In this document: piece by piece, positions 3,097 through 39,897 of the stretch | Position numbering within the stretch: the first letter of the stretch is position 1 | Layout: each line of letters starts with the position of its first letter | Sequence record: MF044457 | Direction: 5' to 3' (one strand) | DNA length: 64,000 bases | Origin: Escherichia phage ST0 | Made by a program: the position numbers and the translations under genes | Notes under the pieces: generated by a model | The model's database searches: none | Seen by the model: the letters and a program-made list of their open reading frames with translations, nothing else | What the model was told of the DNA's origin: nothing

Positions 3097-4257
3097 ATGA
3101 ATACCTTTAAAATCGGAACGAATTTTGATTTAGCTCTTCTTGATAAAATCGTAGAGCTCAATAAAACTTATCCTAATAGCTTGATAAACGAAGTATACGG
3201 CTCTACAAGAGAAATGGCTTTTGTAGCAGCCAGACCTGATTTTAGGCTTCCTGACGTTGACAAAAAGATGTTAGAAGATTACGTTAAACGTTGTAACGAA
3301 TTAGGTATTTGCTTTAACTATACACTCAACACGATAAATCCTGGTTCAAAAAGAGAACTAGTTGAGTGGAAGAAGAAAGCTATTCAGGATTATGTTCAGT
3401 ATCTTTGGTCAATAGGCGTATGGCGTATTACTATCGCTAACCCTGTTGTTATGGAAATTGTTCGTGAAGTCAATAAAGACATTGAGATTGAAGTTTCAAC
3501 AATTCTACATGTCGATGCTGTAACTCAAATCAAATACTTGCATGACCAATATAATATCAAAAAGGTCTGCTGCGGAATTCATAAGAACCGTTCAGTTTCT
3601 TTCCTGAAGCGTGCAGCAGAGTTTTGTAATAAGAACAATATAATATTTGAAGTTCTTGTAAATGAGTTCTGTTCTAATGCTGGTAAAGGGTATACAACAC
3701 ATTGTAGTTATCGTGACTCTTGCTATATTTTCCATAGCACCGATGTTACAGTAGATGATGCCAAATCTTTAAATGGATATCCAATGCAACATTGTATTAA
3801 AGCTCGTGATACAGATCCATTTAACTGGTTGAGAACTCGTTTTGTTCGTCCTCAAGATTTGAAACTTTATAATGATATTGGTATCACTCAATTCAAAGTT
3901 TCAGGACGTACAGGTAGCACAGACTACATTTTGAAAGTTCTTGAAGCTTATGCTTCTGAAAAGTTTGAAGGTAATTTGTTGGAATTGTGGAAGCCTTTAG
4001 AGACCATTTTCACTCTTGAAAATGAGACTGAGTTTTCACATACGGTAAATATTGAAACCTCTTTGTTAGATGGCTTTTTAGAAAAAAGGTGGTTCAGACA
4101 TCCAGATTTCGATTGTGCTAATGAAATCTGCGGGACGACGTGTACATATTGTGAAAGATATTATAAACGTCAATTATCTAAAAACGGGTTAGCAGAAAAC
4201 TCTATATCTATTATTGATATAACTAACTCTGATGACGCTTTGAGGTACCCGGAATGA
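3097..4257 (+). CDS. Cys-rich protein with U32-family-like signature, function unknown
   Basis: ORF track 386 aa. EVLVNEFCSNAGKGYTTHCSYRDSC resembles the U32 family signature (E-x-F-x2-G-x-x-C...C-x-x-S); C-terminal CANEICGTTCTYC cluster. Confidence 0.55.
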   Translation: MNTFKIGTNFDLALLDKIVELNKTYPNSLINEVYGSTREMAFVAARPDFRLPDVDKKMLEDYVKRCNELGICFNYTLNTINPGSKRELVEWKKKAIQDYVQYLWSIGVWRITIANPVVMEIVREVNKDIEIEVSTILHVDAVTQIKYLHDQYNIKKVCCGIHKNRSVSFLKRAAEFCNKNNIIFEVLVNEFCSNAGKGYTTHCSYRDSCYIFHSTDVTVDDAKSLNGYPMQHCIKARDTDPFNWLRTRFVRPQDLKLYNDIGITQFKVSGRTGSTDYILKVLEAYASEKFEGNLLELWKPLETIFTLENETEFSHTVNIETSLLDGFLEKRWFRHPDFDCANEICGTTCTYCERYYKRQLSKNGLAENSISIIDITNSDDALRYPE

Positions 4258-11799: not shown

Positions 11800-12093
11800 A
11801 TGAAAAAGTTATCATTGGCAGCAATCTTACTCGCAGTATCATGTGCACCAGCTCCAGTTACGGCAGGTTATGATAAAGACCTCTGTGAGTGGTCAATGAC
11901 TGCAAATCAAGAAGATGTTGAACAACAAATCTTCTCTGATATCATGAACATCACTAAACGAGACCGTCCTAATATGGTTAATAAAGTTGTTGAACAACTT
12001 AAGTCTGGCGGTATCATGCAGTACAATTATGTTTTGTATTGTGACCCTAATTTCGATAACAAAGATATCGTAACCGAAATCACAGGTGAATAA
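11800..12093 (+). CDS. secreted periplasmic protein, possibly spackle (Sp)-like
   Basis: 97 aa with N-terminal signal peptide MKKLSLAAILLAVSCAPAPVTA; size and signal peptide match T4 Sp (97 aa precursor). Sequence match is from vague recall only. Confidence 0.55.
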   Translation: MKKLSLAAILLAVSCAPAPVTAGYDKDLCEWSMTANQEDVEQQIFSDIMNITKRDRPNMVNKVVEQLKSGGIMQYNYVLYCDPNFDNKDIVTEITGE

Positions 12094-12094
12094 T

Positions 12095-12745
12095 ATGATT
12101 TATTACATGCACAAAAACGCGCCATTTAAATATGGTAAATTTCCTAATGCACAATGTTATAATATAACGCCGAACGAAAATAATAACGGATACCATATTG
12201 GTGTAATTTTTGTAATTGTTAAAGATAACGAAATCGTTGCCTGGGCAGATTTTAAAGGTACAACGTATGATGTTAATCCGGTGCCTTTCACATATTACAA
12301 TATAATGGATTTGGCATATGATTATAATTGGTTTAATCATGACGCGTTGGCTCATATTGAAGGTGTAGGATTTGACATCTCTTATTCTAGCTATTCATTA
12401 TGTCCTATGAGCCGAGCTCACGGTAAAGATGCATCATATCTTTCATTTCGGAAACGCGTAAACTTCAAACGTAGTACAGAGTATGTTGGTGGTCTCTTTG
12501 TTAAAGATAATAAAATAACCCGTATTAGTTATCCTTTAAGTGTAGGTCAAAAAGATGTTGATGTTGATTTAGACTTAACCGAAAATAACATTAATCGTAT
12601 TGCTTCTGTATATTTTGATATCGATGAAAAAATTGTAGTGTGTGGATACGAATTACCACCTGAAGAAAAGGCTGAAGCAATCGAAGTCGAATTAGAAATT
12701 TCTGTTGATGACCAAATATTTAATGCATTTATGAATCGAGGTTAA
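12095..12745 (+). CDS. hypothetical protein
   Basis: ORF track 12086..12745 (GTG); start moved to ATG at 12095 just after the upstream stop. Confidence 0.5.
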   Translation: MIYYMHKNAPFKYGKFPNAQCYNITPNENNNGYHIGVIFVIVKDNEIVAWADFKGTTYDVNPVPFTYYNIMDLAYDYNWFNHDALAHIEGVGFDISYSSYSLCPMSRAHGKDASYLSFRKRVNFKRSTEYVGGLFVKDNKITRISYPLSVGQKDVDVDLDLTENNINRIASVYFDIDEKIVVCGYELPPEEKAEAIEVELEISVDDQIFNAFMNRG

Positions 12746-12746
12746 A

Positions 12747-12944
12747 ATGACTACTGCAATTTGCACTGGTTCTAAAATTAGTGTTTTTACAAGTTTTGAA
12801 GATTATGAAGTTGTTTCAAAACACCAATACCATATTAGCGTAAAAGCTAATGACGGTGTAATTTGGAATATTCCACAGTATGAAGGCACTACGTATGAAG
12901 TCACAGATATAAATGGTGACAAAGCAATCTTTGTAATTGATTAA
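12747..12944 (+). CDS. hypothetical small protein
   Basis: ORF track 65 aa; starts 2 nt after the upstream stop. Confidence 0.4.
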   Translation: MTTAICTGSKISVFTSFEDYEVVSKHQYHISVKANDGVIWNIPQYEGTTYEVTDINGDKAIFVID

Positions 12945-12963
12945 ATATACTCAGGAGGTACCT

Positions 12964-13431
12964 ATGGGTATTATTAACACTGCAATAGATTCTGTTTATG
13001 CATATAAGTTTATTCGACTAATGCAAAAACCTTTTACCGAATGGAAAGCATACGAAGCCAAAATCATCGATGAACGTGGAAGTGTTCTTAAACGTCCTTC
13101 TACTCCCGAAGAAAAAGCGGCTTATACACCTTTTCATGCTTCAGTTCGTTCAATGAAGCGAATGATGAGCACTGTTCCAGGTCTTAATGGAATGGCCTCA
13201 ATGATGTCTGCCTGGAGTGCTGTAGCTTCACGCTATAACATTACGGAAGAACAACAGAAAGAAATATTTAAAGAACTCCCTTTATTTGAGGATATGGTTG
13301 CTGGTGATTCAGGTGGCAGCTCTCAAGCTATTGCATCAGGAACAACTACAGGTGCAGTCGTAAATAAAGGTCCAGAACAAATTCCTTCCAAGAAAAGAAA
13401 GCGAATTAAAGTAAATATTAATAAGTTGTGA
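12964..13431 (+). CDS. hypothetical protein
   Basis: ORF track 12937..13431; start moved to ATG at 12964 preceded by AGGAGG. Confidence 0.5.
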   Translation: MGIINTAIDSVYAYKFIRLMQKPFTEWKAYEAKIIDERGSVLKRPSTPEEKAAYTPFHASVRSMKRMMSTVPGLNGMASMMSAWSAVASRYNITEEQQKEIFKELPLFEDMVAGDSGGSSQAIASGTTTGAVVNKGPEQIPSKKRKRIKVNINKL

Positions 13432-13470: not shown

Positions 13471-14493
13471 ATGGCTGAATGGATAGATAATGAATTTGCT
13501 TATCGTGCGTTTTCTCACCTACCTCGTTTTAGACAAATCAATAATTCAAGCACATTTAAATTAACATTTCGTTGTCCAGTTTGTGGCGACTCCCAGACAG
13601 ATGCAATGAAAGCTCGCGGATGGTATTACGGCGGTACTCCTGGTAATGTACATTGCTATAATTGTCAATACCACAATACAATTTCCGGATACTTAAAAGA
13701 ATATGACGAAGAGCTTTATCGCGAATATCTAATGGAAGTTCGTAAAGAAAAAGCTAGAATGGAACCAAAGATTGAAAAGGTTCCTGAAACTAAGCCGGAG
13801 CCAGAGAAAAAGACTATAAATTCTTTGCCGTCTTGTTCTCGTCTGGACAAGCTGCCTGAAGAGCATCCTATTGTGAAATATGTTAAGTCTCGATGCATTC
13901 CTAAAGAATCATGGAACAGATTATGGTTCACATTAGAATGGCCTAAATTGGTCAACAAGATTCAACCTGGTACGTATAAGAAAGAGATTCCCGAACCACG
14001 TTTAGTGATTCCTATTTTTAATAAAGACGGGAAGGCTGAGTCATTCCAAGGACGTGCACTTCGTAAAGATGCTCCTCAGAAATATATCACTATTAAAGCG
14101 TTTGAGTCTGCAACAAAAATTTATGGTGTTGAACGTGTTAAGGAAGGAGACGTCTGGGTAATGGAAGGCCCTATTGATAGTTTATTCATACCCAATGCAA
14201 TCGCTATTACAGGCGGCTCAATAGATTTAGATGTAGTACCATTTAAAGAACGTCGGGTATGGGTAATGGATAATGAACCTAGGCATCCGGATACTATAGC
14301 TCGCATGAAGCGATTAGTTGATGCAGGCGAACGTGTCATGTTCTGGGACCGAGCTCCGTGGAGATCAAAGGATGTGAATGATATGGTAATGAAAGAAAAT
14401 GCAACACCACAAGAAATTTTAGAATATATGAAACAGAATATTTCAAGTGGGTTGCATGCTAAAATGAGATTATCTCGTTATTCTAAGATTTAA
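13471..14493 (+). CDS. 61: gp61 DNA primase
   Basis: 340 aa; zinc ribbon CPVCGD...CYNCQY and near-identity with remembered T4 gp61 (FKLTFRCPVCGDSQTD, RVWVMDNEPRHPDTIARMKRLVDAGERVMFWD). Confidence 0.95.
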   Translation: MAEWIDNEFAYRAFSHLPRFRQINNSSTFKLTFRCPVCGDSQTDAMKARGWYYGGTPGNVHCYNCQYHNTISGYLKEYDEELYREYLMEVRKEKARMEPKIEKVPETKPEPEKKTINSLPSCSRLDKLPEEHPIVKYVKSRCIPKESWNRLWFTLEWPKLVNKIQPGTYKKEIPEPRLVIPIFNKDGKAESFQGRALRKDAPQKYITIKAFESATKIYGVERVKEGDVWVMEGPIDSLFIPNAIAITGGSIDLDVVPFKERRVWVMDNEPRHPDTIARMKRLVDAGERVMFWDRAPWRSKDVNDMVMKENATPQEILEYMKQNISSGLHAKMRLSRYSKI

Positions 14494-14687
14494 ACAAGCC
14501 CTATAATAGCAAATGCCAAATCAACTACAGTATCCAATGGAACAGAAGGAACCATAACACCATGGGCAACTAACAATGGCGCAATCCCGAAGTTCCATGA
14601 AATAATGCCACCTACAACTATTGCGGCGATAGCAGTTTTCTTTTTATTGCCTTTAATAGCGTTGATTAACGATGGAAGTTTAAACAT
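14490..14687 (-). CDS. small hydrophobic membrane protein encoded antisense to the surrounding early genes
   Basis: 65 aa; strong RBS AAGGAGA 5 nt upstream of ATG on the minus strand; two hydrophobic stretches. Confidence 0.5.
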   Translation of the reverse strand: MFKLPSLINAIKGNKKKTAIAAIVVGGIISWNFGIAPLLVAHGVMVPSVPLDTVVDLAFAIIGLV

Positions 14688-14775
14688 AATATCTCCTTAG
14701 TTACCTATTATTTATTACGCTTTATAAAATTAATGTTAGAATTAACTCTCTTATACTGAATTGAAAGGAAAAATA

Positions 14776-15297
14776 ATGGCACACTTTAACGAATGTTCAC
14801 AACTTATTTCTGGTGTTGATAAAGCAGAAGAAGCTTATTTTAATGCTCTGATTCACGAAGATAAAGACCCACTGCAGGTAATGCTTGATATGCAGAAATC
14901 TTTACAGGTTCGTCTGGCAAATGACAAGCCTGAACATAACAAACATCCTGATGAATTGGCCACTGCTGGTGATGTTGTTGATTGGCTGCGTAATCAGAAA
15001 GATTATATTGATGATGAATTCCGTGAACTGCTGACTTCACTTGGTGGTATGAGCAATGGTGAAAAAGCCGCTAGCTCTGTATGGAAACCGTGGAAGGCGC
15101 AACACGCTGAATATCGAAATCGTCGTATCGATGAACTGTCTCCTGAAGACCAGCTTGAAATTAAATTCGAGATGATTGATATTCTACATTTCGTTCTAAA
15201 TATGTTCCAAGGTCTAGGACTTTCTGCTGAAGAAATCTTCAAACTGTATTACCTGAAAAACCAACACAACTTTGAACGCCAGGATAATGGTTACTAA
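14776..15297 (+). CDS. 56: gp56 dCTP pyrophosphatase (MazG-like dCTPase/dUTPase)
   Basis: ORF track starts at a TTG at 14761; ATG at 14776 gives MAHFNECSQLI... matching the remembered T4 gp56 N-terminus; RELLTSLGGMSNGEK and EIKFEMIDILHFVLNMF conserved. Confidence 0.85.
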   Translation: MAHFNECSQLISGVDKAEEAYFNALIHEDKDPLQVMLDMQKSLQVRLANDKPEHNKHPDELATAGDVVDWLRNQKDYIDDEFRELLTSLGGMSNGEKAASSVWKPWKAQHAEYRNRRIDELSPEDQLEIKFEMIDILHFVLNMFQGLGLSAEEIFKLYYLKNQHNFERQDNGY

Positions 15298-15303
15298 TTA
15301 AGT

Positions 15304-15311
15304 TATAAATA
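15304..15311 (+). promoter_or_regulatory. late promoter TATAAATA upstream of soc
   Basis: Exact TATAAATA about 30 nt upstream of the soc start. Confidence 0.6.
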
Positions 15312-17161: not shown

Positions 17162-17743
17162 ATGACATGTCAATCTGAACTTCAAGAACGCGAATACCTA
17201 ACAAATCTGATTGATAGCAAATTCACCAACCAAGAACAAAACATTCTCTGGGCTTGCACCGATTCTAAGGAAGACCCGGATTTCCACTATGAATTAGACC
17301 ATCTTGTTCGTAAGCATATGACTTCTACAGTACCAGTAGAACTCTACCGTGGTGTAACTCCAGAAGAAGTAGAACGTCTTTCCCTTCTTTCTGTTGGATG
17401 TCATTGGTCTCCTGGACGAGTAACATCGTTCACAACTGATTTCAGTACAGCTCGTCAATTCTCCGGGAGCTGGGAATATCAGACGTACACTATTCTTAGT
17501 CTCAGGAATGCTCCATTCATTTTTGATTACTACCAAAACATGGTTAACATTGTACTTGCCGGAAAGAATCCTAAGCATGTTATGGAAGAAACTCGTATCG
17601 ATGTCCTAGATATGATTGAATCTGAACAAGAGTATATGGTCTCAGGTATCTCTAGATTTGAGATTGTGGAAATTGAAGACTTAGAATATGACCCTTTATC
17701 TCGGTTATACAAAATCATTCATTTGAAAATGTTGAATTTTTAG
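17162..17743 (+). CDS. ADP-ribosyltransferase, ModA/ModB family (R-S-E type)
   Basis: 193 aa; ELYRGV (Arg), VTSFTTDFSTARQF (S-x-S/T region), ESEQEYMVSG (catalytic E-x-E-like). Confidence 0.75.
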   Translation: MTCQSELQEREYLTNLIDSKFTNQEQNILWACTDSKEDPDFHYELDHLVRKHMTSTVPVELYRGVTPEEVERLSLLSVGCHWSPGRVTSFTTDFSTARQFSGSWEYQTYTILSLRNAPFIFDYYQNMVNIVLAGKNPKHVMEETRIDVLDMIESEQEYMVSGISRFEIVEIEDLEYDPLSRLYKIIHLKMLNF

Positions 17744-17772
17744 TGTACAAACTCTACCGACGATGATACTAT
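17743..17772 (+). promoter_or_regulatory. early promoter
   Basis: GTGTAC, about 18 bp, TACTAT. Confidence 0.45.
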
Positions 17773-17800
17773 ACTTTTATCAACCACAGGAGAAACCTAA

Positions 17801-18409
17801 ATGTTTATGCCGTGTAATGAATGTGAAATTGAGGAAATGGTTCGACGTGCTCAATGCCCAGACTATCAGGATATGCTTCAGTACAAAATCGATGAGCAAT
17901 TCAGTGACATTGAACAAAGTGTACTATGGCAGTGTATGGAAAACAAGCCAGACAGCATCCAACAAGATTTAAGTGCAATTGTTCGTAGAAATTGGTCTTC
18001 TTCAGTTCCTGAGACAATGTATCGTGGAATCTCTAAGAAAACTATGGCCACACTCGATGATAAAGGCGTTGGTAGTATTATTAAATTTGACAGAGTAATG
18101 AGCTTCAGCCCAGTGTTCAGTGTAGCACGTAACTTCGCTTCATATAATTTTTATGGAACATTTAATATGTTCTGCATCAAAGATGTACCATTTGCTTTCA
18201 ACTTCCGTGAACATATGCTTAATATGATTCTGGCTGCACCGTCTTGTGAGTTCAATGGAGCTTTCCCTGAAGCGACAAGACGGTCTAATGCTAGACTTAT
18301 ATCTGACGAATGTGAATTTATGCTCCCTATAGGGACTACACTGCGTGTAGATTCTATTATTCAAGATGGACGTTATACAATCTGGAATCTGTCTATTGTC
18401 GGTTACTGA
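17801..18409 (+). CDS. ADP-ribosyltransferase, ModA/ModB family (second paralog)
   Basis: 202 aa; TMYRGIS, VMSFSPVFSVARNF, SDECEFMLP follow the same R / S-x-S / E-x-E layout. Confidence 0.75.
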   Translation: MFMPCNECEIEEMVRRAQCPDYQDMLQYKIDEQFSDIEQSVLWQCMENKPDSIQQDLSAIVRRNWSSSVPETMYRGISKKTMATLDDKGVGSIIKFDRVMSFSPVFSVARNFASYNFYGTFNMFCIKDVPFAFNFREHMLNMILAAPSCEFNGAFPEATRRSNARLISDECEFMLPIGTTLRVDSIIQDGRYTIWNLSIVGY

Positions 18410-36537: not shown

Positions 36538-36882
36538 ATGAATAAGCTGAATATTATTAACGAACTTCGTAAATGTGCAGAACCTACTCAGGAAGGATGG
36601 GATATTTGGTACCACGGGGCTTATCTTGGAACTATAGTTAAAGTTAAAGCTGGGTTATATTTAATTATTCGCGAAAATTCTGAATTCCCTAATGGAGTAG
36701 CTCCTGGCGGTATACGTAAAAACTTTATGGCAGCGATCAGTTCATTTGTTGATGCCGCTTACGAAATCTATAAAGAAGATTATAAAGAATATCAGCAGTC
36801 ACAACCGGTTATTCGTTCGATTGGTGTAAATAAACAAGCACAAAAATCTATTTGGCAACGTATTAAGGAATGGTTTAAATGA
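36538..36882 (+). CDS. hypothetical protein
   Basis: ORF track 114 aa. Confidence 0.45.
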
Positions 36883-37340
36883 AATCATTTAAAGAACGTT
36901 TAGAGCTATTAGATTTGGCCTTGTCTCGTGAGACTCCTGAAAGTCTAGCAGAAAAATTCCAGTCCTACGGTTATAATTATTCTGCTGATGATATAATGAA
37001 TGAAGTTCCTGAAATCTGTTGGCAAACGTGCTATTGGAATAATGACCAAAAAGTTCAACGTGTTATAGTATGTGCAGCTAATAGGTTTAAATTGAAGAGT
37101 GGTGGAACTCTGGTTATTCCTGGAGTTCGTCATTACTCTAAAGATATGGCTGAAGTACTTGATATAGTTGGTCCTCAATTAGTCTCGCAACAAGTTTGTG
37201 GTGACGACCAAGGCTTTATCGACCAATACTCTAATTACTGGACTCGTGAAGAAGCAATGATTATTGCAACGTATGCTGGACAGGCACGTATTGAACGTGG
37301 CGGAAGTGAGAAAGAACTTTATTCAGAGGACCTTTATTAA
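36879..37340 (+). CDS. hypothetical protein
   Basis: ORF track 153 aa; ATGA overlap with upstream gene. Confidence 0.45.
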
Positions 37341-37621: not shown

Positions 37622-37823
37622 TTCTAAAGTAGATTATTTTAATTCTGTTAATGATAAGAATAAAGCTTTAATTCGCCACTTTATTACTGAGATGGGATAT
37701 ACTGACTCTAAAGATTTGAAAGAGCACATTATCGAATGTTCTGTGGCTAAAAAGTTTTCTTTTACCGATAAATGTTTAAATGAGGTTATAAATCATTATG
37801 AACAATCTTGTAGCAAAACATGA
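37605..37823 (+). CDS. hypothetical small protein
   Basis: ORF track 72 aa. Confidence 0.35.
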   Translation: MIRIIDSKVDYFNSVNDKNKALIRHFITEMGYTDSKDLKEHIIECSVAKKFSFTDKCLNEVINHYEQSCSKT

Positions 37824-37906
37824 TTTCAATAAGGCTTCCGTCCATAAGGACAAGAAGAAATCAGAACTTCAATCTAAACGTAAACAAAAACATAAGGGTA
37901 AAGACT

Positions 37907-38206
37907 ATGCTTACTAAAATCAAAGAAAATCCTGCCACTGAACTTGTTATTCGTTGTGAAGAACTTGCAGAGCTTTATCAGGTTAACCGAGAAGTATATC
38001 GTAGTGTTGTTGCAGATATGGCAGACGAAGTATGTTCTCGTATTCCTTTTAGTGTTGATTTCAATCACATGAAGCCTGGTGAAATCACTATCGTCTTTGG
38101 TTCTGACTATACTGAAGAACGGGCTCTTAATGCCCTAGAATATGAAATGTCATTCTTCGACATACAGGACTACATTGATAGTTATAAGGAACGATATGAG
38201 TCATAA
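37907..38206 (+). CDS. hypothetical acidic protein (arn position by synteny only)
   Basis: ORF track 37820..38206; start moved to ATG at 37907 after AAGGG. Confidence 0.4.
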   Translation: MLTKIKENPATELVIRCEELAELYQVNREVYRSVVADMADEVCSRIPFSVDFNHMKPGEITIVFGSDYTEERALNALEYEMSFFDIQDYIDSYKERYES

Positions 38207-38676: not shown

Positions 38677-39336
38677 TTATTTAGCCCTTCCTAGTATTCG
38701 GACCGCTTGGTTGCATATAGCCGCTAAGCGGTCTTCCTCAAGTATATTACTCCCCTTATACCAATACATCGTCACAGTTCCGGCATAGATGTTATCCAAA
38801 TTAAAGTATGGACAACTATACATATAAGAAAGTTCGGCAGTCTTAGATTTTGTAGGCAAAAATGCAAATTCTGATTTAGATGAGAAATGACGGCCACTTA
38901 AATGAATTATATATTCATTGGCCGTTTTATCCACCGGGAATCCGCCAAGGGACTTTTCAGAAATTGTGCTAGGTAGTTTGCCTTCATAAGCTATAAGGTC
39001 GACGAAATAATTTAAGTTTTTAGGTCTGAAAGAATACACAGCACTAAAATCCGCACCAGATGAGATATGAACTATTTGCAGTTGTTCTAGAGCCGCAGAT
39101 TCAAAACGTAAAGCTCGTTCTTTTTGGATTATTTCAGTATAAGTATCATACTTAGCTCTTACATAATAATCCAGCAAAATACTTCCTTTGTACCATATTA
39201 GTGCCATTAGGAACAAAAGAATAATTACCGCTACTCGGGACATTAAAACCTTTCCAGTAGCGTTATCTTTGAAAATACGATCTAGCAACCCAAATAGAAT
39301 ATCACTAAGTGAAAATGATACTTTTGGTGTTGCCAT
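38677..39336 (-). CDS. t: holin T
   Basis: 219 aa; MATPKVSFSLSDILFGLLDRIFKDNATGKVL...AVYSFRPKNLNYFVDLIAYEGKLPSTISEKSLGG matches remembered T4 holin. Confidence 0.92.
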   Translation of the reverse strand: MATPKVSFSLSDILFGLLDRIFKDNATGKVLMSRVAVIILLFLMALIWYKGSILLDYYVRAKYDTYTEIIQKERALRFESAALEQLQIVHISSGADFSAVYSFRPKNLNYFVDLIAYEGKLPSTISEKSLGGFPVDKTANEYIIHLSGRHFSSKSEFAFLPTKSKTAELSYMYSCPYFNLDNIYAGTVTMYWYKGSNILEEDRLAAICNQAVRILGRAK

Positions 39337-39345
39337 AATACCTCC

Positions 39346-39897
39346 TTACTTAAAGATATTTATAATCGCTTTGACAATAGATTTGTTTTCAAGGTCAGGG
39401 AATTTAGGGAATTCACCGCCAAGATGTTCATGCTTTTCTAAAAGGGCAAAGAATTTTTTGAGCTCTTTATATTTTCGTTTTTCTTCTCTATTAGCAACCT
39501 CTGCGTCAATAAGAGAATTTAAAACACTGAATAATTTATAGAGTTCATGAATTTTCTTATCACGTTGAACTACGCGTTTATATGCTTCATCTTCCTTCCA
39601 CCCGTCGCCGGTCCAAATGTCAAATTCACCAGGTTCTTCTGTAGTAACATTTTGAAGAGCACCTGGTGTGTCAATAACAATTTTTTGCTTATCATAAGTC
39701 CATACTGTTTTTCCACGATGGTCTTCAACATATACCCATTCTTGCTCGCGTTCGTCAAATATAACAGCATAGCCTTCTTTAGGGTCTAAAGGTTTTTTTG
39801 GTGTCGAATGAGCCGGAAATCCTACGCCTTTTAATGGTTTATAATTTTCTTCTTTGTAAAATTCTTTAGTGTCAAAATAATAGTGATAGAGTTTCAT
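39346..39897 (-). CDS. 38: gp38 distal tail fibre assembly chaperone (T4 type)
   Basis: 183 aa; MKLYHYYFDTKEFYKEENYKP...FALLEKHEHLGGEFP matches remembered T4 gp38. Confidence 0.92.
   Translation of the reverse strand: MKLYHYYFDTKEFYKEENYKPLKGVGFPAHSTPKKPLDPKEGYAVIFDEREQEWVYVEDHRGKTVWTYDKQKIVIDTPGALQNVTTEEPGEFDIWTGDGWKEDEAYKRVVQRDKKIHELYKLFSVLNSLIDAEVANREEKRKYKELKKFFALLEKHEHLGGEFPKFPDLENKSIVKAIINIFK
39357..39364 (-). promoter_or_regulatory. late promoter TATAAATA for holin t
   Basis: Minus strand reads TATAAATA, then AAGGAGGT RBS and ATG of t. Confidence 0.6.

Follow-up and report, generated by a model that had tools for sequence, protein, structure and literature searches.

A 65-residue membrane-protein gene between genes 61 and 56 of T-even phages, its late-type signals and a possible link to holin-family proteins

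The textbook case of lysis timing and lysis inhibition is phage T4, whose lysis system comprises holin T, antiholins RI and RIII, lysozyme E and spanins, and T is the established essential holin of this phage. Pinholins and other very small holins, such as phage 21 S68 and T7 gp17.5, have 60-70 amino acids and act late, at the membrane. Pinholins contain two transmembrane domains, one of them a signal-anchor-release (SAR) domain, and are paired with SAR endolysins, whereas T-even phages combine T with a soluble lysozyme. A further group is represented by the family GTA_holin_3TM (PF11351). Its RcGTA protein rcc00556 is a putative holin for which the evidence has been described as indirect (PMC3423380), while TeaA of phage ICP1 shows holin behaviour in experiments, since it collapses the proton-motive force when expressed alone and can be triggered by dinitrophenol (DNP) (PMC7182436). 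Here we describe a minus-strand open reading frame (ORF) for a membrane protein of 65 amino acids in a stretch of 64,000 nucleotides (nt) from Escherichia phage ST0 (sequence record MF044457), referred to below as the window. The ORF lies between gene 61 and gene 56, and we compare it with these systems using the following features.

14490-14687, minus strand: the 65-amino-acid ORF with an ATG start, coding sequence (CDS) for a membrane protein, ortholog of RB69ORF029w and member of phrog_2024
14692-14698, minus strand: Shine-Dalgarno (SD) sequence AAGGAGA of the ORF, read from the sequence, 4 nt from the ATG (5 nt if counted from AAGGAG)
14709-14716, minus strand: AATAAATA, putative gp55-dependent late promoter with A for T at -13, found by motif search, 23 nt before the ATG
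38677-39336, minus strand: homolog of holin t, 219 amino acids, identical to the annotated holin of phage F2

The layouts of holin t and the ORF are nearly identical (TATAAATA-17 nt-...ATG against AATAAATA-18 nt-...ATG), t having a perfect TATAAATA at 39357-39364 (minus strand) followed by AAGGAGG and ATG. The products differ: T has 219 amino acids and a large periplasmic domain, whereas the ORF encodes a small protein with one membrane-spanning helix. The T-holin family was not found among the family and fold search matches of the 65-amino-acid protein, no direct pairwise comparison with gp t having been made. Its likeness to pinholins concerns size and, as far as predicted, late timing and action on the membrane, and is a functional analogy only. 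With PF11351 proteins it has in common small size, membrane location and a predicted late expression, the link being indirect and running through a family of about 96 amino acids in enterobacterial chromosomes. It differs from them in having about half the domain length, one bilayer-spanning helix and no adjoining endolysin gene.

Conservation of the ORF and its T4 ortholog

The predicted product, MFKLPSLINAIKGNKKKTAIAAIVVGGIISWNFGIAPLLVAHGVMVPSVPLDTVVDLAFAIIGLV, matched phrog_2024 over its whole length (E 2.6e-27, residues 1-65 on profile positions 1-65 of 65), and all 8 diverse orthologs tested matched this family. The window is that of an RB69-like Mosigvirus, and over the 2 kb that surround the ORF it shares 97-99% identity with other members of this group (such as PNJ-9, phi25-307, HX01 and JS09). 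A tblastn search (E<=1e-3) identified the ORF in 691 phage records, and a second query with a looser threshold raised the number to 941. Protein identity to the ORF was 93-100% in Mosigvirus, approximately 54-56% in Tequatrovirus including T4 and T6, and approximately 45% in Gaprivervirus and Yersinia T4-like phages; the looser search added weaker matches at the equal map position in Dhakavirus, Moonvirus and Klebsiella T4-like phages. All matches with an inspected or listed position had gene 61 on one side and gene 56 (or dam) on the other, or, in genomes with the T4 order, lay at ~14-16 kb; at the inspected loci synteny was kept, the ORF being in opposite orientation to the flanking genes 56 and 61. 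Conservation in related phages, by which an earlier sequence-only reading of this stretch had proposed to judge the gene, therefore extends over ~700-940 T-even-type genomes at an equal locus. Lineage-specific insertions flank the ORF on either side, namely dam in T4 and a homing endonuclease gene in Yersinia phage P8, where it is located between the ORF and the primase gene (L004 3215-4053). The locus is an insertion hotspot, and phage CJ20 carries a further opposite-strand ORF of 137 amino acids beyond the primase gene (L005 4361-4774).

Codon analysis of 14 distinct sequences gave a ratio of nonsynonymous to synonymous changes (dN/dS) of 0.13-0.47. Variable columns numbered 45, 19 and 57 at the first, second and third codon positions, the second being the most conserved, and the synonymous excess was significant both within Mosigvirus (Fisher p = 2.5e-5) and between Mosigvirus and T4-type sequences (4e-7). 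Frame, SD and start were intact in all clades, at 45-55% protein identity. Purifying selection thus acts on the ORF, and the small hydrophobic membrane-protein gene of the sequence-only reading is almost certainly real. A chance ORF was ruled out, as the reading frame is conserved, syntenic and under purifying selection. A recent foreign insert was also ruled out, given that the GC content of the ORF equals that of the genome and the locus is fixed across most T-even genera.

The immediate neighbours of the ORF are the following.

13471-14493, plus strand: gene 61, DnaG-type primase of 340 amino acids (phrog_47, E 8e-102), convergent with the ORF
14490-14493: 4-nt overlap of the stop codons of the convergent ORF and gene 61, in the context TTTAAA, arranged alike in T4
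14776-15297, plus strand: gene 56, dCTPase/dUTPase family, on the other flank of the ORF

Convergence with gene 61 and the strong SD had both been pointed out beforehand, and both are present as described. The same holds for the claim that this is the sole reverse-strand gene of the ~38-kb early region. In the annotation of the collinear phage F2, the ortholog gp087 is the only minus-strand CDS ahead of the late block that opens with holin t, and in the window the late block starts at 38677.

The ORF is already known in databases as a hypothetical protein, for example as RB69ORF029w, as phi25-307 gp117 and as RB32ORF030w in RB14. RB69ORF029w, RB32ORF030w and phrog_2024 represent the same gene, with equal position and orientation by gene 61 and no difference in sequence features. 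Almost all source names retrieved for orthologs were 'hypothetical protein' or equivalent, with stray 'holin' or mis-transferred labels; some depositors used 'Holin' or 'putative holin'. Literature searches on RB69ORF029w/RB32ORF030w, on ribosome profiling (Ribo-seq) or proteogenomic re-annotation of T4, and on the 61-dam interval returned nothing on the ORF. New here are a late-promoter layout shared across genera, a chain of homology that leads to holin-type proteins, the gap in the T4 reference annotation, and the widespread 96-amino-acid relatives with their four-gene module.

In the T4 RefSeq record NC_000866.4, an unannotated gap of 310 bp separates dam (start 17625) from gene 61 (stop 17935), and the ortholog is located there.

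NC_000866.4 17738-17938 (L002 3739-3939), plus strand: T4 ortholog of 66 amino acids, preceded by GATAAATA, AAAGGAGG and ATG, with no CDS in RefSeq

The exact T4 protein was found in a collection of 15 billion proteins, in raw-read assemblies only and without an NCBI accession. We suggest that T4 RefSeq should gain a CDS at 17738-17938 (plus strand), as omics studies relying on the present record cannot detect the ORF. The sequence-only reading had tentatively placed dam in this interval of T4 and had seen no methyltransferase here. The T4 record bears out the former and, for the latter, T4 Dam had no counterpart in a tblastn search of the whole 64-kb window (best E 3.1). What does not hold is the idea of a phage-specific gene in dam's place. 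T4 carries both dam and the unannotated ortholog, so the ORF does not replace dam, and this candidate explanation was rejected.

Two details of the start region were observed in Tequatrovirus. In the T6 record AP018814, the first ATG of the ortholog reads ATT (L003 2491-2692), so that translation would begin at Met6 or at ATT; product names in this record are clearly mis-transferred. T4-type orthologs begin with MVQKLM, two in-frame Met codons with a Lys between them, which recalls the dual-start motifs of holin/antiholin genes. Mosigvirus orthologs have no double Met start of this type.

Signals for late transcription

The motif NATAAATA was found 16-24 nt ahead of the ATG in every clade (Mosigvirus, T4-type, T6-type and Gaprivervirus/Yersinia), with flanking bases that could not be aligned. 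The variant differed by clade: AATAAATA in Mosigvirus and T6-type phages, GATAAATA in T4-type phages, and CATAAATA in Gaprivervirus and Yersinia phages. AAGGAG(G) before the ATG of the orthologs was invariant in all clades. Among the variants of the T4 late promoter, AATAAATA is the commonest; of 50 listed T4 late promoters, 32 are perfect and 9 have A for T at -13 (PMC2988020). For VATAAATA in the window the expected count was 21.2 and the observed count 9, and none of 100 shuffles gave fewer than 9, while TATAAATA was observed 5 times against 7 expected. The depletion of VATAAATA suggests selection against spurious gp55 promoters. There were 14 NATAAATA sites in the window. The perfect ones at 15304 (plus strand), 39364, 43905 and 48985 (minus strand) lead into an SD and ATG, with 15304 preceding soc and 39364 preceding t. 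The site at 14716 (minus strand) was the only imperfect one with the promoter-SD-ATG layout of t, soc and two other late genes. Late genes such as t, 38 and 37 likewise lie on the minus strand.

Conversely, a scan for sigma-70-like promoters on the minus strand found none within 450 nt upstream of the ORF. According to these signals, the ORF is probably expressed late. The gp55-RNA polymerase would transcribe it from the conserved variant promoter AATAAATA, with a transcription start near 14703 (about 14702-14704) and a predicted monocistronic late transcript. The minus-strand promoter search near the ORF proposed by the sequence-only reading yielded a putative late promoter, which speaks against that reading's view of the ORF as a gene of the early region. 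Its term 'antisense' is misleading: overlap with plus-strand genes is limited to the 4 nt at the stop codons, the strand is the one used by late genes, and the conserved motif is late-promoter-like. T4 late transcripts occur in either polarity (PMC2988020), and a preprint on differential RNA sequencing (dRNA-seq) of T4 reports 150 transcription starts, 22 of them antisense (bioRxiv 10.1101/2024.04.04.588121).

Scanning beyond the end of the ORF revealed no terminator-like site in the window. At Gaprivervirus-type loci a hairpin followed by a T-run, which may terminate transcription in both directions, separates the ORF from gene 61 (L005 ~3255-3295; also L010, L014 and L015). In Mosigvirus and T4 the ORF and gene 61 overlap, and this element is absent. 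On the other side of the ORF, the window contains ttaCGCTTTA, 12 nt and TAGAAT (14716-14749, plus strand). This element looks like a middle promoter of the MotA-box type for gene 56, and it is placed back to back with the late promoter proposed for the ORF. Since the T4 annotation puts oriA where gene 56 begins, the 61-56 spacer may be an oriA-equivalent region.

Protein anatomy and remote relatives

An AlphaFold2 model of the 65-amino-acid protein (predicted local distance difference test score, pLDDT, 79) contained three helices (residues 3-11, 15-41 and 51-62), of which 15-41 alone has a bilayer-spanning length. The modelled parts map to the window as follows.

14655-14681, minus strand: N-terminal amphipathic helix, residues 3-11 of the model (hydrophobic moment 1.35; residues 2-12 amphipathic)
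14565-14636, minus strand: single membrane-spanning helix, residues 18-41 (model helix 15-41, pLDDT 80-86), uniformly hydrophobic
14502-14537, minus strand: C-terminal hydrophobic/amphipathic helix, residues 51-62 of the model (hydrophobic moment 1.56)

A Lys-rich stretch, KGNKKK, occupies residues 12-17 after the N-terminal helix, and a Pro-rich loop (HG..P..P) occupies residues 42-50. The hydrophobic C-terminal stretch (residues 51-65) includes a helix with an acidic face formed by D/E52 and D56. Residues invariant across genera were L7, A10, I11, K12, K16, W31, N32, F33, P37, G43, P47, V55, D56, A60, G63 and L64, so that W31-N32-F33 and P37 mark the transmembrane helix. The N-terminus would be cytoplasmic because of the positive-inside rule. 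This gives a predicted N-in/C-out topology, with a cytoplasmic Lys cluster and a C-terminal helix that is periplasmic or re-entrant.

Direct searches with the 65-amino-acid protein were uninformative about function. Pfam gave no match, and the orthologs (n=8) gave noise only (Syndecan, Ldr_toxin and SNARE, E ~0.1). For the protein and its orthologs, NCBIfam likewise returned noise, PADLOC nothing, and PDB sequences E values above 1. Foldseek searches of both models against BFVD retrieved mainly orthologs, with one non-significant 'Holin of 3TMs' entry (E 2.1). A profile search of 1.84 billion representatives gave 2 clusters only. The profile consisted of Mosigvirus sequences only, and its narrowness explains why the family described next was missed.

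An IMG/VR scan detected a divergent relative of 92 amino acids at locus L016, on a Yersinia chromosome or prophage. Its C-terminal 45 residues matched phrog_2024 (E 7.7e-13), and it scored 24.8 bits against PF11351, exactly the gathering cutoff. This protein belongs to a family of ~96 amino acids on Enterobacterales chromosomes (Yersinia, Serratia, Pectobacterium, Klebsiella and E. coli). Examples are WP_023328017.1 and P0009-P0102, with P0047 and P0033 occurring on ~900 contigs each. All 26 sampled members matched phrog_2024 (best 5.5e-14), 14 of the 26 matched phrog_3427 'holin' (best 5.1e-5), and 21 of the 26 matched PF11351 at E<=0.1 (best 24.8 bits) over profile positions 39-117 of 123. 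The next-best Pfam family was matched by 7 members, at E 0.01 or worse. Profile-profile comparison (hhalign) of the T-even family with the 96-amino-acid family gave 97.4% probability and E 1.1e-11 over columns 22-64. The 96-amino-acid family in turn reached 94.7% probability with a cyanophage/roseophage family whose member in Pseudanabaena phage Pan1 is annotated 'GTA-like holin'. The Pan1 protein is itself below the PF11351 threshold (14.8 bits).

According to these comparisons, the transmembrane and C-terminal parts of the phage protein are homologous to the 96-amino-acid family, and this family lies, by its profile matches, at the edge of GTA_holin_3TM and phrog_3427. Both have a transmembrane helix with WN[FY]..P, a loop G(V)..P..PL[DE] and a C-terminal helix ending in G. 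The 96-amino-acid proteins differ in being ~30 residues longer, through a hydrophilic linker (QNxITLEETRKGFTWRQ) that is absent from the phage protein. A global alignment indicated that the N-terminal helix is perhaps kept in the phage protein (MFKLPSLINAIK against MFSLTTIIELIK, MFxLxxxIxxIK). It is suggestive only of a phage protein that retained this helix and lost the ~30-residue hydrophilic linker. Judged by this homology chain, the 65-amino-acid protein is probably related to the GTA-holin superfamily. As it has no direct PF11351 match, we class it as a miniaturised variant and not as a family member.

The 96-amino-acid gene is the last of a conserved four-gene module, which encodes a SegE-type GIY-YIG-like protein (~149 amino acids) and proteins of 189, 103 and 96 amino acids.

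L018 2670-4291; L016 18-1614; L025 9025-10622: four-gene module at an enterobacterial prophage end, after the tail-tip fibre gene

Its neighbours are a lysozyme gene in opposite orientation and a KAP NTPase gene matching the PADLOC candidate defence family PDC-S20. By PADLOC the module is not a known defence system. It was rare in complete E. coli genomes (2/5426), and both the module and, essentially, the 96-amino-acid family were absent from sequenced phages.

Proposed role and alternatives

The combination of late-gene signals, a small membrane-embedded product and holin-type ancestry makes a holin-like mechanism the most likely one. We tentatively propose that the 65-amino-acid protein is a miniature accessory protein of the holin superfamily, which acts late at the inner membrane and contributes to or tunes lysis timing. 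Late in infection it would build up in the inner membrane, where its copies would associate or oligomerise through the WNF..P transmembrane helix and the C-terminal helix. The assembled protein may then perturb membrane integrity or the proton-motive force, and would thereby modulate the lysis programme of T, RI, RIII, E and the spanins. It would be accessory to the main holin T, which is also encoded by the phage (38677-39336, minus strand) and would not be replaced.

Several observations weigh against a holin-like role. None of the T-even members (the window protein and 8 orthologs) matched PF11351 even at E<=10. The T-even family compared directly with the Pan1 'GTA-like holin' family gave a non-significant hhalign probability of 6.6%. 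Searches of ICP1 ORF135-140 with three family hidden Markov models (HMMs) found no similarity, including ORF137, which from our own identification, made without a Pfam check, we take to be TeaA. The bridging 96-amino-acid family has no assigned function and lies outside any obvious holin-endolysin-spanin cassette. The ORF is likewise outside a lysis cassette, its neighbours being gene 61 and gene 56, with holin t 24 kb away and no endolysin gene adjoining. The protein has one helix of spanning length and a hydrophobic C-terminus, unlike the charged tail of many holins. Finally, t or e null mutants of T4 do not lyse. The 65-amino-acid protein is therefore not a sufficient holin for T4 lysozyme, which is why we call it accessory.

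The sequence-only reading had suggested an immunity or toxin-like gene. A related explanation is that of a conflict protein with no role in lysis, either a late factor for superinfection exclusion or immunity or one that blocks a membrane-associated host defence, that would bind a membrane component of the host or of incoming phage. A small inner-membrane protein in a region with imm, sp, dmd and 61.x accessory genes would suit such a role, as would the confinement of the ORF to Enterobacterales phages and prophage relatives, and its nearest relatives do lie beside the KAP NTPase matching PDC-S20 at a prophage end. We nevertheless regard it as unlikely. Pfam and PHROG searches matched the protein to no Imm or Sp family, PADLOC searches matched it to no model, and the annotations of collinear relatives show imm and sp as separate genes on the early strand, ~2-3 kb upstream. 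Immunity in its original form is left with no supporting evidence. Known exclusion genes are early genes, whereas only a late-type promoter was found at the ORF, and a gene kept at one fixed locus in nearly all of these phages does not look like typical variable accessory cargo. The toxin-like label applies only loosely, in that the closest detectable relatives are holin-family proteins. Searches for a type I toxin were negative: Ldr_toxin reached E 0.1 in only 1 of 8 orthologs, and an Rfam scan of 14200-15000 found no partner RNA. A more specific variant of conflict is a dominant-negative decoy, in which the truncated phage copy would co-assemble through its transmembrane and C-terminal helices with the 96-amino-acid prophage protein and neutralise it, this target being, for instance, an effector of abortive infection or the lysis protein of a competitor. 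Homology limited to these two helices, with a possible N-terminal remnant and the ~30-amino-acid hydrophilic linker lost, fits this picture, and so do the wide distribution of the 96-amino-acid family in the same host order (P0047 and P0033) and the location of its gene in a defence-rich prophage end. The idea is speculative and quite improbable: the module is no known defence system, and its rarity in complete E. coli makes a near-universal T-even decoy hard to explain.

The late-promoter layout, the predicted inner-membrane location and the strong conservation across Tevenvirinae would also suit a membrane-bound morphogenesis helper, for example in prohead initiation with gp40/gp20. This role seems improbable, given that searches revealed no homology to structural or assembly families, the relatives that could be detected resemble holins, not assembly proteins, and the gene is distant from the head and tail blocks. 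A role at the RNA level, through a late antisense transcript that enters gene 61 at its 3' end, or a role of some other signal, in DNA or RNA, within the spacer between genes 61 and 56, is the one to which we give very little credence. Late T4 transcripts of either polarity are known (PMC2988020), and with no terminator-like site after the ORF in the window such a transcript would run antisense into gene 61. Read-through is, however, not conserved, as the hairpin and T-run of Gaprivervirus-type loci follow directly after the ORF, before gene 61. The signature is that of a protein (dN/dS below 1, third-position excess, and intact frame, SD and start), and the Rfam scan of 14200-15000 found no family match.

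If the accessory holin-like role is correct, essentially all T-even-type phages would carry a second holin-related late membrane protein, one that is absent from the reference T4 annotation. As a real component of lysis, it would have been overlooked in a very heavily studied phage and may help to explain aspects of membrane depolarisation, lysis timing or lysis inhibition beyond T, RI and RIII. At 65 residues it would also illustrate how compact a GTA-holin-type protein can be. The hypothesis is directly testable, with a 200-bp ORF, a defined putative promoter and an ortholog in T4.

Variable accessory regions were seen elsewhere in the window. Upstream of the primase gene, the 61.x accessory block contains a gp61.2-like ORF of 219 amino acids from a GTG start (12086-12745, plus strand) and an ORF of 164 amino acids assigned to phrog_2086, whose function is unassigned (12937-13431, plus strand). 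The early/late boundary before holin t is another such region, where ORFs of 153 and 128 amino acids (36879-37340 and 37820-38206, plus strand) lie just before the holin gene and are not collinear with phage F2.

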